DNA of 31,654 nucleotides from a virus: UHGV virus genome UHGV-1544975. The stretch is one strand, 5' to 3'. The position numbers and the translations under genes were made by a program. Below, one piece after another: positions 25,739 through 31,654 of this stretch; positions within the stretch are counted from its first letter, which is position 1, and every line of letters begins with the position of its first letter. The notes below the pieces were generated by a model that saw only the letters and a list, made by a program, of their open reading frames with translations, ran no database searches and was not told the DNA's origin.

Positions 25739-26323
25739 ATGAAAAGTATCCAGGACGTCCGCAGGCAAAATCTCAACGACTTGATCGACCGTGAATTCAA
25801 TGGTGTTCAGACGCGGATGGCAGAAAAACTTGGAACTCAGGCAAATCTGGTAAACCGCTGGGCTCTTGGCAAGAAGGTTATCGGCGACCAGGTTGCACGA
25901 AAAATTGAAGCTGCCGCCAATAAACCCCGTAACTGGCTTGATATTGATCGTTCGCTTTCTCAGGAGGGTTTTCAGCCTGTCGGACCAAGCGACATTGGTC
26001 AACTGGCGGCTCACAACCTGGAACGCTGGATGAGCGAAAGCCGCGACCTTTCAACACAGGGAAAACTTCACCGCGCATCCGGCGTAGCCCAGGTGACAAT
26101 CAGCCGCCTGTTAAACAATGAGGTCAGCGTTTCCATTTCCACCCTGGAGAATGTTGCATCCGCATTCGGGCGTCATGGCTATGAATTACTGATTCACCCG
26201 CACGACCCTGCGACCATCAACTATGATCGCTCGCGCTACGCATTGTTACCCGAAACCGAGAAAGCAAAGATCGAAAGTTACATTGAATTTGTCATCAACC
26301 AGAACGAAAAAAGCAAACAATAA
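25739..26323 (+). CDS. Repressor-like protein with two HTH domains (194 aa), no S24 peptidase domain
   Basis: N-terminal and central segments both look HTH-like; divergent from the Cro-like gene; followed by a terminator. Confidence 0.5.
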   Translation: MKSIQDVRRQNLNDLIDREFNGVQTRMAEKLGTQANLVNRWALGKKVIGDQVARKIEAAANKPRNWLDIDRSLSQEGFQPVGPSDIGQLAAHNLERWMSESRDLSTQGKLHRASGVAQVTISRLLNNEVSVSISTLENVASAFGRHGYELLIHPHDPATINYDRSRYALLPETEKAKIESYIEFVINQNEKSKQ

Positions 26324-26345
26324 AACCATAGTTTTCAGTAAGTAA

Positions 26346-26370
26346 GCCGCCTCATGGCGGCTTTTTTATT
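26346..26370 (+). terminator. Rho-independent terminator after the repressor-like gene (GCCGCC-TCAT-GGCGGC then TTTTTT)
   Basis: 6-bp GC stem plus 6-T run. Confidence 0.65.
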
Positions 26371-26379
26371 GCCAGATAG

Positions 26380-26458
26380 ATTACCTTACGGGTAATTTTT
26401 TTAACTCATATCTATTGACACCAAACCAAATAAGCATAATTATTACCCCAACGGTAAC
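26380..26458 (+). promoter_or_regulatory. Early-operon promoter flanked by two operator palindromes
   Basis: ATTACC-TTACG-GGTAAT (26380..26396); -35 TTGACA (26415..26420), 17-nt spacer, -10 AATTAT; ATTACC-CCAAC-GGTAAC (26442..26458) over the -10/+1. Confidence 0.5.
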
Positions 26459-28908: not shown

Positions 28909-29157
28909 ATGAAAGGTGCATTAGGTAAGAAAGAACTCCTGGCGGTGGTGCCACTGTCATGGAGCACTATCGACCGTATGGAGCGCGCAGGGGAATTTCC
29001 TAAACGCTGGTATATCACCGATAAACGCTGCGCATGGAACCGTGATGAAGTTGAGCGTTGGCTTGATGAACGTCAGGCAGCAAGCCCGGCAGAGTTCCAG
29101 GGTAAAAAGCCTCCTGTTCAGCAACGTGTATATCGTCCCGTGAGCAACGCTGCATGA
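28909..29157 (+). CDS. AlpA-like small DNA-binding protein (excisionase/regulator-like)
   Basis: Segment LLAVVPLSWSTIDRMERAGEFPKRWYITDKRCAWNRDEVERWLD fits the AlpA/Xis-type HTH pattern. Confidence 0.55.
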   Translation: MKGALGKKELLAVVPLSWSTIDRMERAGEFPKRWYITDKRCAWNRDEVERWLDERQAASPAEFQGKKPPVQQRVYRPVSNAA

Positions 29158-29266
29158 GTGCGCTGCTAAGGCACTGGAGCAAATGGTCAGGATGGTACTT
29201 ATTCCTGGCCTCTGTTTCAGCATGGCTTTATCTGCTGGCATTAATTTTCAGAGAGGGTTGGATTAA

Positions 29267-29566
29267 GTGAGAAAGTTAAGCCGACTTGAAAAATATCACA
29301 TGAATAAGGTTTCAATGCGCAGTCCGTCAAAGATTGTCGCCGTTACTCCTGCGGCGATAGAGATCGAAAAACGCGCGATTGAAAGAGAGAAAAAAGGGCA
29401 ATTCCGCATTGCCGCTCACCTTTGGCTTCAGTGTATGGATGTTGCTTCTGGTGATGTTGAACGTGCAAGGATCGCGGTTCGCAGGGACCAATGTATCACA
29501 AAAGGTAACGGCCTTCGCCGTGGCGACTATAGCGGTATAGGATGTTGCGGGGTGGTTTATGACTAA
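29267..29566 (+). CDS. Possible PerC/Pch-like (ANR family) transcriptional regulator
   Basis: Segment FRIAAHLWLQCMDVASGDVERARIAVRRDQC resembles my recollection of the PerC core pattern; GTG start per track. Confidence 0.3.
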   Translation: MRKLSRLEKYHMNKVSMRSPSKIVAVTPAAIEIEKRAIEREKKGQFRIAAHLWLQCMDVASGDVERARIAVRRDQCITKGNGLRRGDYSGIGCCGVVYD

Positions 29567-30209
29567 GAAATACACACTAATCTATGCAGATCCACCCTGG
29601 GTATACCGGGACAAAGCCGCAGATGGTAATCGCGGTGCCGGTTTTAAATATCCGGTTATGAGTGTGATGGATATCTGCCGCCTTCCTGTGTGGGATTTGG
29701 CCGATGAAAACTGTCTGTTGGCCATGTGGTGGGTGCCAACACAACCACTCGAAGCACTAAAAGTTGTTGAAGCCTGGGGATTCCGTCTGATGACCATGAA
29801 GGGATTCACGTGGATAAAATGTGGTAGTCGACAACCAGATAAACTGGTTATGGGTATGGGTCACATGACTCGCGCCAATAGTGAAGATTGCCTGTTTGCA
29901 GTAAAGGGAAAACTACCTCCGCGCATTAATGCAGGGATCGTTCAGTCATTTACCGCACCGCGGCTTGAGCATTCAAGAAAACCAGATGTCGTTCGTGAAA
30001 AACTTGTGCAATTGTTAGGCGATGTTTCTCGCATTGAACTGTTCGCCCGCCAGTCGTCTCATGGCTTCGATGTTTGGGGTAATCAGTGCGAAGACCCGGC
30101 AGTGCAACTACACCCTGGATACGCGTTGGATATTGCCAGATTAACAAATGCATTCAGCAATGCTCCGCTGTCACCAACAGACAACCAGGGGCGGGAGCGT
30201 GCAGCATGA
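29559..30209 (+). CDS. MT-A70 family DNA N6-adenine methyltransferase (orphan)
   Basis: Catalytic DPPW motif in IYADPPWVY; no adjacent restriction endonuclease candidate. Confidence 0.8.
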   Translation: MTKKYTLIYADPPWVYRDKAADGNRGAGFKYPVMSVMDICRLPVWDLADENCLLAMWWVPTQPLEALKVVEAWGFRLMTMKGFTWIKCGSRQPDKLVMGMGHMTRANSEDCLFAVKGKLPPRINAGIVQSFTAPRLEHSRKPDVVREKLVQLLGDVSRIELFARQSSHGFDVWGNQCEDPAVQLHPGYALDIARLTNAFSNAPLSPTDNQGRERAA

Positions 30210-30400
30210 ACCGGGCATCACCAGCAGATTTAAGGAAATGCCTTGAAACTGCAAACATGCTTGCACACAGCGGGATCAGGTTTGTTCCAATTCCCGCTGT
30301 CACCGATGCTGAATTTGCAACGCTGTCAGCAATATTCGAAGACAAAATTGAATCACTGGCAGCAGAAGCCGAGATGGAAGAAAATCAGCAGAATAATTAA
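30206..30400 (+). CDS. Hypothetical small protein (64 aa) coupled to the methyltransferase
   Basis: ATG overlaps the methyltransferase TGA (ATGA); track ORF 30086..30400 is the same frame over-extended. Confidence 0.4.
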   Translation: MNRASPADLRKCLETANMLAHSGIRFVPIPAVTDAEFATLSAIFEDKIESLAAEAEMEENQQNN

Positions 30401-30403
30401 ACG

Positions 30404-31654
30404 TTATTCCCCCGCCATCCACTTCTCAAACTTCGACGGGGAGAACGGAATCAGATCCGTATGCTCCCCGTCAATCCAAGAATCAATCATATCGGCCCAC
30501 TGCTGCAACATGTAGGCGCGCTGTCTGGCGTATTCCGCTTTGTTATATACGGCGCGCACACCTTTCTGCTCATGTGCCAGAGCCTTTTCAATCCAGTCTG
30601 AAGGATAACCAGCCTCATGCAACAACGTACTGGCTGTACGGCGCATATCGTGTACGGTGAAGTCCTGAATATGCTCACCATCTTCATTTATTATTTTCAC
30701 CGTTCTGTCGATCAGAGAGTTCAGTGCGGCATTAGATAATGGCTTCCGGAAATTGTAACGACCAGGAACCAGGTATTCACTTCCACCAGCGCACATCTGC
30801 AACCCGACCAATATATCCTGTGCCTGTTTAGGCAGGTAAATAACGTGCGCCCGGCTTCCTTTCATGCGGTCTGAAGGAATTGTCCATGTCCATTTTTTAA
30901 AATCTATTTCATCCCACGTTGCATTGGTGAATTCGCCCTTACGAACCATAGTGATAAGCACCAGTTTTAAAGCCATTTTCATAGTGCCCATAGCACCAAT
31001 GGCATCCAGCGTGCGGAAGAACAGGCCAATTTCTTCTGGTGTCAGTGTTCGCTCTCGTGGTTTAAATATGGCGATAGACGAAGGTTTAATGTCAGCCGCA
31101 GGATTAAACAAACCATGACCACGGTCATTGGCGTGACGGTATACGCTGCTGATGATCTCCCTGGCCTGCACTGCTGTTGCCCGGCCACCGCGTTCGACAA
31201 TCCGGTCACACAAATCACGAACCATCGATGTGGTAATTTCAGCCATCATTTTATTGCCAAGAACCGGAAGTATGTCACGGTCGATCACCGCCTGTTTCAT
31301 TGCGCGGGTACTGTCAGCCAGGATGACGTGTTTCATATAACTGTCGGTATGTACCGCAAACGTCTCGGCACCACGAATCTTTTTGATACCGTCACGTTTA
31401 GCCGCAGCCGGTGACTGGCCTGCTTTAAGCAGCTTCTTTGCAGCAATCAGTTCTTCTCGCGCTTCTGCCAGGCTGATACCGTCACGCCCATACTGCCCGA
31501 TTACCAGCGTTTCGCGGCGACCGTTGATACGGTAGTCGTAGCGAAACGAGACCGTGCCTGACGTAAGCACAGCCACATACAGCCCGTCACGATCGGAAAC
31601 TTTGTACAGTTTGTCCTGTGGCTTGAGGTTTTTTAATTTTGTATCGGTAAGCAC
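30404..31654 (-). CDS. int: Tyrosine integrase, P4-type; start at or just beyond the window edge
   Basis: N-terminal LTDTKLKNLKP...DGLYV arm-binding-type domain; C-terminal catalytic region with HDMRRT and terminal Y; first codon in window is GTG at 31652..31654. Confidence 0.9.
   Translation of the reverse strand: MLTDTKLKNLKPQDKLYKVSDRDGLYVAVLTSGTVSFRYDYRINGRRETLVIGQYGRDGISLAEAREELIAAKKLLKAGQSPAAAKRDGIKKIRGAETFAVHTDSYMKHVILADSTRAMKQAVIDRDILPVLGNKMMAEITTSMVRDLCDRIVERGGRATAVQAREIISSVYRHANDRGHGLFNPAADIKPSSIAIFKPRERTLTPEEIGLFFRTLDAIGAMGTMKMALKLVLITMVRKGEFTNATWDEIDFKKWTWTIPSDRMKGSRAHVIYLPKQAQDILVGLQMCAGGSEYLVPGRYNFRKPLSNAALNSLIDRTVKIINEDGEHIQDFTVHDMRRTASTLLHEAGYPSDWIEKALAHEQKGVRAVYNKAEYARQRAYMLQQWADMIDSWIDGEHTDLIPFSPSKFEKWMAGE

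Follow-up and report, generated by a model that had tools for sequence, protein, structure and literature searches.

A PerC/ANR-core small protein gene beside an MT-A70 methyltransferase gene in a phiV10/epsilon15-type prophage

What does a small prophage protein of the PerC family do when its gene lies directly upstream of a methyltransferase gene? The question is raised by the gene at positions 29,267 to 29,566 of the UHGV virus genome UHGV-1544975, a stretch of 31,654 nucleotides (nt) that is referred to here as the window. The element in the window is a phiV10/epsilon15-type (Uetakevirus) prophage integrated next to guaA, and the gene encodes a protein of 99 amino acids (aa). A reading of the letters alone, the original prediction, had tentatively taken this gene for a PerC/Pch-like regulator in the early operon that could activate ler and affect the virulence gene expression of the host. 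Analysis of the locus upheld the family and the early operon, while the virulence role was not supported. The best lead for the function of the 99-aa protein, inferred from its context, is instead an association of such genes with phage methyltransferases. We tentatively favor a small PerC/ANR-type helical adaptor that would be made early and functionally coupled to the adjacent methyltransferase.

The PerC/ANR core and its gene

The original prediction rested on one segment (FRIAAHLWLQCMDVASGDVERARIAVRRDQC, residues 46-76 of the 99-aa protein) that resembled the PerC/Pch core, and profile and pairwise comparisons bear this resemblance out. A search with the PerC family profile (Pfam PF06069), which the prediction had proposed as a check, returned 30.1 bits (E 6e-7) against a gathering threshold of 22.6 bits, and the 83-aa form held in RefSeq scored 30.5 bits. 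The reference proteins were PerC of enteropathogenic Escherichia coli (EPEC; plasmid pMAR2), group 1 Pch from an O157:H7 genome, and PchD and PchE from strain Sakai. BLASTP aligned the 99-aa protein with EPEC PerC at 40% identity over 60 aa (pairwise E 2e-10), and in HHalign a profile built from 30 orthologues matched one built from PerC/Pch proteins (probability 97.8%, E 1.2e-12). The PerC resemblance is far beyond chance. The family assignment is correct and has been known since the phiV10 genome description. PhiV10p34 is entered in the phiV10 record as "identified by similarity: Pfam PF06069", and RefSeq names WP_001335975.1 a "PerC family transcriptional regulator".

Alignment with PerC and group 1 Pch, a second check that had been proposed, demonstrated nine invariant core residues (A37, E41, G44, R47, A49, W53, R66, R73 and C76) and a missing C-terminal half. 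The same nine residues are invariant alike in PerC, group 1 Pch, PchD, PchE and EcCIMP1_025. The Pfam match is limited to profile positions 5-50 of 90, whereas the controls PerC, Pch, PchD and PchE scored 124-153 bits over positions 1-90. No match of the 99-aa protein across the whole 90-position domain was obtained, and the C-terminal motif was not found in the alignment.

The residues that match PerC also match the NCBIfam model of the ANR family (AraC negative regulators; NF033650) with 23.6 bits (E 3.4e-5), under its cut-off of 32. Genuine PerC and Pch proteins scored lower on this model (13.6-18.2 bits); among the controls, Aar reached 65.8 bits and the phage ANR proteins of two surveyed loci, L212 and L214, reached 44.2 and 48.0 bits. 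The ANR signature is present, with A37, E41, A49 and W53 spaced as A10, E14, A22 and W26 of the ANR consensus (PMC4983702). BLASTP of Aar gave no alignment with the 99-aa protein or with PerC, and HHalign of the 99-aa subfamily against Aar by itself was not significant, so that the putative ANR link of the protein is drawn only from the NCBIfam profile and the residue signature. A profile search of 1.84 billion representatives returned 67 clusters at E <=0.001 and 3 at 1e-30. PerC and ANR are two curated views of one helical core, because Pfam PerC recognizes each of the 35 distant relatives examined and ANR recognizes 27 of them as well, and the 99-aa protein is a narrow, separate branch of this PerC/ANR superfamily.

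The open reading frame (ORF), which runs on the + strand from GTG 29267 to TAA 29564-29566, is a real and conserved small phage protein gene. Epsilon15 gp31 and phiV10p34 are its orthologues, and orthologues at 59-84% identity occur in Salmonella, Citrobacter, Klebsiella, Enterobacter, Kosakonia and others. The ratio of nonsynonymous to synonymous substitution (dN/dS) is 0.18-0.20 with synonymous sites saturated, indicating purifying selection, and the protein matches the phrog_868 profile over its full length (E 5.7e-62, residues 1-99 on profile positions 1-99). Retrieval of related loci with the subfamily alignment gave 80 loci, all near-identical and uninformative on conservation over distance.

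Public gene models of these proteins differ in their start. The RefSeq model of WP_001335975.1 has 83 aa (ATG 29315) and is 16 aa shorter than the GTG model, phiV10p34 is annotated as 88 aa (ATG 29300), and gp31 has 99 aa in the curated record of epsilon15. Y10 and H11 are kept in at least 90% of 30 homologues (59-84% identity), most of which lack methionine at positions 12 and 17, and the ATG of divergent homologues lies at or 5' of the Y10-H11 motif. The sole in-frame start 5' of this conserved motif is GTG 29267, which overlaps the stop of the preceding 38-aa ORF (GTGA) and has the sequence GAGAGGG 9 nt ahead of it. We prefer GTG 29267, the start that the original prediction had used, because of the N-terminal conservation, the coupling to the 5' ORF and the 99-aa model of epsilon15 gp31. 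It is the better gene model and looks correct; the 83-aa RefSeq and 88-aa phiV10 models are probably truncated.

The protein consists of an extension, the core and a tail (Table 1). Y10, H11, R18, A25, V26, P28 and A30 of the N-terminal extension are conserved in at least 90% of the aligned sequences, and the extension is not present in PerC/Pch. Y88, G90, V96 and Y98 of the tail are invariant; the tail is common to long-form relatives fused to a winged helix-turn-helix (wHTH) and is not shared by PerC/Pch. An AlphaFold2 (AF2) model built from the orthologue alignment has a mean predicted local distance difference test (pLDDT) score of 71.8, with a confidently modeled three-helix core (helices 28-42, 46-59 and 63-80; block means of 81-90 over residues 31-80), a weaker N-terminal helix at 6-16, and residues 83-99 below 50. 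Foldseek comparison of this model with the PDB gave nothing significant (best E 0.58): the nearest matches were generic MIT/TPR peptide-binding shapes, with no DNA-binding fold among them. A direct search of solved structures with the 99-aa protein also returned nothing (best E 0.99). A 96-aa natural variant (P0087) has the 38-aa membrane peptide fused in frame to the PerC core and the N-extension deleted.

Long-form phage relatives of 140-160 aa carry the same core and tail after an N-terminal winged-helix domain, and HHalign connects them to the 99-aa subfamily with a probability of 98.9% (E 1.8e-17). Their N-domain matches the PapI-type regulator PDB 2htj (E 4e-5), followed by MarR and Z-alpha domains. 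The fusion of the core to a winged helix in these relatives suggests that the PerC core serves as a module for interaction; in the long-form proteins, the separate winged-helix domain probably provides the targeting to DNA or RNA.

Association with phage methyltransferases

The ATG of the MT-A70 methyltransferase gene that follows overlaps the PerC-like ORF by 8 nt. BLASTP of this methylase demonstrated 82% identity (153/186, E 1e-122) to gp5 of phage phiPA8, also named M.EcoPA8orf6770P, which is the catalytic subunit of a two-subunit phage 16S rRNA methyltransferase (PMC10810198). MT-A70 enzymes typically need a partner (PMC10810198), and Gong and co-workers found M.EcoPA8orf6770P alone to be weak and non-specific (PMC10810198; bioRxiv 10.1101/2023.09.20.558713). 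Its partner PNB-2 is encoded directly upstream with a 4-nt overlap, is co-transcribed, co-purifies 1:1 with the methylase and confers specificity, and the holoenzyme prefers 16S rRNA (PMC10810198). The two modules have matching layouts: PNB-2, MT-A70 and DUF1382 in phiPA8 (gp4 is DUF1382, E 9.5e-28) and PerC-like, MT-A70 and DUF1382 in the window. The PerC-like gene holds the PNB-2-like slot: it directly precedes the methylase gene within one operon and overlaps it. The same paper restricts the methylase gene to carriers of Shiga toxin (Stx) prophages and describes variants in strains other than Shiga toxin-producing E. coli (non-STEC) that are "lacking the last 27 aa" and are also without PNB-2 (PMC10810198). 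This 'truncated' isoform may be the phiV10-type enzyme, whose C-terminus differs from residue 187 onward without being truncated.

A survey from the PerC side covered 11 lineages less than 50% identical to one another, and a methyltransferase lies within three genes downstream in 8 of them. These methylases come from four unrelated families (MT-A70, Dam PF05869, D12 and C5) and from two operon types. The window-type lineage is followed by MT-A70, or by a C5 methylase plus Dam; the SfV orf40 lineage by an abutting Dam; L097 by a D12 methylase two genes on; L099 by MT-A70 and then Lar; L103 by an overlapping D12; L104 by MT-A70 after a 38-aa ORF; and both L100 and L108 by an overlapping Dam and then C5. 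L107 has no downstream methylase and carries type I HsdM/HsdS upstream, no methylase was called in L105, where a ParB-like protein follows, and L106 has no methylase.

Two methylases near such genes are mislabeled or uncalled in their records. In phage SfV (L009 2710-3851), RefSeq labels p41 'phosphoadenosine phosphosulfate reductase', although its authors named it dam and it clearly belongs to the Dam methylase family (PF05869, E 1e-45). Its gene abuts orf40, which encodes a winged helix together with a PerC core. In a Kosakonia prophage (L090 4469-5818), an uncalled 1.35-kb stretch encodes a C5 cytosine methylase (PF00145, E 4e-37) between DUF1317 and a Dam gene, downstream of the PerC-like gene.

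A second survey, from the methylase side, used 160 viral loci of two MT-A70 clades. The methylase was located by pattern in 117 loci, which the counts cover, and "upstream" means within 1.5 kb on the same strand. At 97% methylase identity there were 41 clusters (40 assessable, 1 not), with a PerC-core gene upstream in 17, an ANR-type gene in 5, PNB-2 in 4 and neither type in 14; a PerC-core or ANR gene is therefore upstream in 22 of 40. At 80% identity, all 14 clusters were assessable, and the corresponding numbers were 4, 2, 4 and 4. PNB-2 and a PerC/ANR gene never occurred in the same locus among the 117. All 72 PerC/ANR matches were upstream on the same strand and 0 were downstream or antisense, with 279 kb searched upstream of the methylases and 233 kb downstream. 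The commonest gaps between the PerC/ANR gene and the methylase were -7 nt (29 loci) and -3 nt (14 loci).

L212 (2244-2501) and L214 (2217-2501), as well as L239 and L249, hold bona fide phage ANR genes upstream of MT-A70 with a 4-nt overlap; the ANR papers cited here discuss ANR proteins in partnership with H-NS and with virulence regulators of the AraC type, and do not treat them as phage-encoded. In clusters free of PNB-2, PerC and ANR genes (L131, L145, L146 and L151, at about 2254-2502), an 80-82-aa ORF beginning M.GQSDYLPPGLP lies directly upstream of the methylase, overlapping it by 8 nt in 3 of the 4 loci. This ORF has a weak DNA polymerase III theta-like match and may be a further partner type. 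In some phiV10-like prophages (E. coli strain 2/0, L270 1096-2163; L187 cluster), the PerC-like gene and the methylase are separated precisely at their junction by an inserted gene for a 355-aa protein, which overlaps the methylase start. This protein has a DGQHR domain, which is associated with DNA-modification systems, and the junction seems to accept cargo. A search for fusions between the PerC core and a methylase found none, and its only long match (P0156) was rejected as a repetitive, spurious one. PADLOC gave no defense-system match for the PerC-like protein. A literature search found no paper on PerC-methylase linkage, the term "PerC" being confounded by "percent".

A mechanism can be proposed from this context. 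The 99-aa protein, like ANR proteins, which act through direct protein-protein binding (PMC4983702), would be a small adaptor with a protein, and not a particular DNA sequence, as its binding target. Its best-supported partner or functional target would be the methyltransferase translated immediately after it. In the slot held by PNB-2 for the phiPA8 enzyme, it would serve as an auxiliary subunit or as a modulator. Functional coupling of an early-made adaptor to the adjacent methylase is our working choice, held tentatively. The broader proposal, in which phage PerC/ANR-core proteins are interchangeable auxiliary subunits or modulators of orphan methyltransferases with a PNB-2-like role and the window protein sets or changes the target of its methylase, is doubtful.

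A number of findings weigh against the methylase coupling. Support for the partnership comes from genomic context and not from a demonstrated complex. BLASTP gave no alignment between PNB-2 and the 99-aa protein, PNB-2 has no PerC match, and HHalign of PNB-2 against the profile of the long-form wHTH plus PerC core returned a probability of 0.3%. The identical protein P0094 neighbors MT-A70 in one phage, but in another its neighbors are DUF1317, a C5 methylase and Dam; DUF1317, DUF1382, epsilon15 gp30 or the DGQHR-domain gene can separate the PerC-like gene from the methylase; and neither partner type accompanies 14 of the 40 MT-A70 clusters. The C-terminal tails of the methylases do not covary cleanly with partner type, and those of PerC-associated methylases vary. 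We know of no need for partners in Dam, D12 or C5 enzymes. Phage operon ORFs often overlap without physical interaction, and the shared position could be a conserved accessory-gene slot. The characterized homologues PerC, Pch and ANR act on transcription and have no methylase neighbor. Finally, the surveyed lineages are not fully independent, as phage modules are co-inherited, and the counts describe the surveyed loci.

The main rival is a transcription or nucleoid modulator of the PerC/Pch/ANR type that has nothing to do with the methylase. Made early after induction, such a protein would alter phage or host gene expression by binding to silencers of the H-NS type, to a regulator of the AraC type or to silenced, AT-rich DNA. 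Its adjacency to the methylase would be coincidental and reflect only where phages put accessory genes. Homology to the PerC/Pch and ANR core is the most direct evidence for it. PchA lowers H-NS occupancy at LEE1 and activates only with H-NS or StpA present (PMC4764244), and Aar binds AggR and H-NS (PMC4983702, PMC5570504). The occurrence of the same protein with different methylases, and the MT-A70 clusters that lack a PerC/ANR gene, are also in its favor. Nevertheless, the protein has half of the PerC domain, its ANR score is under the NCBI cut-off, and no target is identifiable. A modulator also leaves unexplained the strict polarity of the matches, the translational overlap, the mutual exclusivity with PNB-2 and the repeated pairing with methylases of four families across two types of operon. 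We regard this explanation as rather unlikely.

The early operon and the ler question

Placement in the early operon was a further part of the original prediction, and the map of the region agrees with it (Table 1). The PerC-like gene is an early, repressor-controlled operon member, because a promoter-like site follows the repressor terminator and because, in the curated record, the corresponding epsilon15 operon is headed by three repressor operators. The site at 26415-26443 is the only strong + strand promoter-like site in the region; no + strand promoter- or terminator-like site was found between it and the PerC-like ORF, and the gene has the GC content of its neighbors. Transcribed with the early-left operon, which the repressor controls, the 99-aa gene would be expressed on infection or induction rather than in a stable lysogen.

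Table 1 Features of the early-left region and segments of the 99-aa protein
Feature	Position	Strand	Evidence or remark
Repressor gene	25739..26323		followed by terminator-like hairpin
Terminator-like hairpin	26344..26363	+	parts repressor gene from early-left operon; phiV10 terminator annotated at same place
Promoter-like site TTGACA-17-AATTAT	26415..26443	+	10/12 consensus; candidate repressor-controlled early-left promoter
AlpA-family excisionase/regulator	28909..29157	+	Pfam Phage_AlpA 24.2 bits vs 21; synteny
38-aa predicted membrane peptide	29154..29270	+	phrog_17484 E 2.6e-27; equals phiV10p35, epsilon15 gp32
PerC-core small protein gene	29267..29566	+	99 aa, GTG start; Pfam PerC, phrog_868, dN/dS, public annotations
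N-terminal extension, residues 1-33	29267..29365	+	subfamily-specific; motif (L/I)EKYH...VAVTPAA; predicted helix 6-16
PerC/ANR core, residues 34-78	29366..29500	+	most of predicted three-helix bundle; profile, alignment and AF2
C-terminal tail, residues 79-99	29501..29563	+	conserved GNGLRRG-Y-SGI..C.GVVYD; last codons overlap methylase start
MT-A70 methyltransferase, 216 aa	29559..30209	+	Pfam MT-A70 E 3.8e-22; BLASTP to M.EcoPA8orf6770P
DUF1382 gene	30206..30400	+	Pfam DUF1382 E 1.5e-30; overlaps methylase stop by 4 nt
P4-type tyrosine integrase	30404..31654	-	convergent with early-left operon

RecT and a YqaJ-type exonuclease are encoded 5' of AlpA in the early-left operon, and the ATG of the 38-aa ORF overlaps the AlpA stop (ATGA). 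The order exonuclease, RecT, AlpA, 38-aa ORF, PerC-like gene, variable small genes, methylase and integrase is kept in guaA prophages of Kosakonia and Klebsiella and in unassigned read assemblies. Epsilon15 carries the whole module, so presence and absence offer no contrast there. A 1.65-kb region of the window is 100% identical to E. coli ECSC054 and is carried by 560 of 5,426 complete E. coli genomes (about 10%, from many sources), at least 95% identical in most; it is also found in phages phiV10, ZX5, TL-2011b and others.

In every Uetakevirus-type locus examined, AlpA lies 5' of the PerC-like gene, and nothing but the 38-aa ORF, where called, parts the two. This invariant order favors an auxiliary protein that would assist the AlpA-type excisionase and the P4-type integrase in excision or integration, as does the description of AlpA and PerC-family genes as typical of P4-integrase islands and of phage-inducible chromosomal islands (PICIs; PMC11773190). 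Against such a factor, the long-form and ANR-type relatives lie in lambdoid replication/nin regions that lack AlpA or integrase and have kept the methylase neighbor. To our knowledge, there is no recombination directionality factor with this fold. A role in excision or integration is improbable.

The claim that found no support is Pch-like activation of ler with an effect on host virulence. Here the protein would activate the promoter of LEE1 in the enterocyte effacement locus (LEE), and in attaching-effacing E. coli the lysogens would gain expression of virulence genes. The 99-aa protein is indeed a PerC-family member, and the hosts are suggestive: O157:H7 is host to phiV10 and to the O157 typing phages, and an O103:H25 strain is the source of TL-2011b. 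O157:H7 and O103:H25 are LEE-positive serotypes. However, the C-terminal half found in all tested PerC/Pch proteins is missing, and even proteins with the full domain differ in effect: PchD and PchE have little effect on the LEE (PMC6265319), and EcCIMP1_025 represses LEE1-lux in Citrobacter rodentium (PMC11773190). Family membership is no predictor of ler activation, because the core is common to activators, to members of little effect and to a repressor.

The genomic setting argues in the same direction. Group 1 pch genes form their own unit between lysis and terminase genes, and a separate accessory unit of this moron-like kind was not found in the window, where ORFs overlap the PerC-like gene on both sides, no promoter or terminator of its own is present and the GC content is that of its neighbors. 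The early operon is expected to be repressed in lysogens. The gene is also conserved in phages of genera such as Kosakonia and Klebsiella, which are not known to carry the LEE and in which no LEE search was made. Lysogens of ZX5, which is 98.6% identical here, were unchanged in adherence and virulence, a result that concerns the whole phage and a host of unchecked LEE status (PMC9782041). A dedicated role in ler activation and lysogenic conversion is unlikely because of the half domain, the variability of the family, the operon setting, the conservation in other genera and the ZX5 lysogens together, and we give the ler activator the least credence among the explanations considered, as very improbable.

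A PerC-family gene in a common phiV10/epsilon15-type prophage is an ordinary finding, and the label "PerC family" should not be read as "activates ler". The sole part worth extending is the recurrence of PerC/ANR genes upstream of phage methyltransferases, in the slot of a proven specificity subunit, which is a testable lead. A physical partnership, if true, would explain how the widespread non-Stx versions of the methylase are targeted. It would also give a new view of how PerC/ANR proteins act, which is still unsettled for PerC and Pch, and add a second, non-transcriptional function to the superfamily. With such a partnership, one would have to ask whether the virulence regulators PerC, Pch and Aar arose from methylase partners of phages.

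Comparison with known systems

PerC, from the EPEC plasmid pEAF, and group 1 Pch (PchA/B/C), from prophages of enterohemorrhagic E. coli (EHEC), share the homologous N-terminal helical core with the 99-aa protein. Like it, they are small, encoded on mobile elements and without a recognizable DNA-binding motif. Unlike them, the 99-aa protein lacks the conserved C-terminal half (..AV....MG.....FR.Y), scoring 30 bits on positions 5-50 where PerC and Pch score 143-149 bits over the full length, and it has its own N-extension of 33 residues and C-tail. Its gene overlaps a methylase gene in an early operon, whereas perC follows perA and perB and the pch genes are separate.

PchD, PchE and the PICI protein EcCIMP1_025 have the same core (27%, 27% and 36% identity, respectively) and are found on elements of the P4-integrase type, the type of integrase that the window prophage also has. 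Unlike the 99-aa protein, they keep the full 90-position domain (124-153 bits) and have no methylase directly downstream. In SpLE1 of strain Sakai (L006 47943-49798, L007 877-1146), pchD comes directly after ibrA (PAPS-reductase-like/DUF3440) and ybdM (ParB-like, weak ParB_N). The PAPS-reductase/DUF3440 and ParB_N domain families also occur in DNA-modification systems, and the neighborhood of pchD echoes the DNA-modification neighborhood of other PerC-core genes. In Sakai Sp7 (L008 16772-17044), pchE lies in a small P4-integrase element between a single-stranded DNA-binding protein (SSB) gene and a capsid/packaging module. It corresponds to the PerC-like gene that PMC11773190 mentions for the PICI EcCIEDL933.

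Comparison with ANR proteins (Aar, Rnr and Cnr) reveals a shared A-x3-E-x7-A-x3-W signature and a predicted three-helix architecture (PMC4983702). As with the phage ANR members, the gene stands directly upstream of an overlapping MT-A70 gene (4 nt in the ANR loci). The 99-aa protein differs in its length, against about 60-70 aa for ANR, and in its extra N-extension and tail, and no AraC-type regulator is encoded near its gene.

PNB-2 is likewise encoded by a small ORF with the same slot and polarity, overlapping MT-A70 with DUF1382 following, in an integrase-proximal early operon. Unlike the 99-aa protein, PNB-2 has 143 aa, a weak HTH match and no PerC core, and it is for PNB-2 only that physical interaction with the methylase has been shown (PMC10810198).

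The closest relatives outside the subfamily are the long-form proteins of the SfV orf40 type (phrog_1324), and the likeness includes the Y-S/A-G-[IV] tail. A PapI/MarR-like winged-helix N-domain of about 65 aa takes the place of the 33-aa extension of the 99-aa protein, and the long-form genes lie in the lambdoid replication/nin region rather than in an early-left operon. Like the gene in the window, they have a methyltransferase downstream in most lineages.

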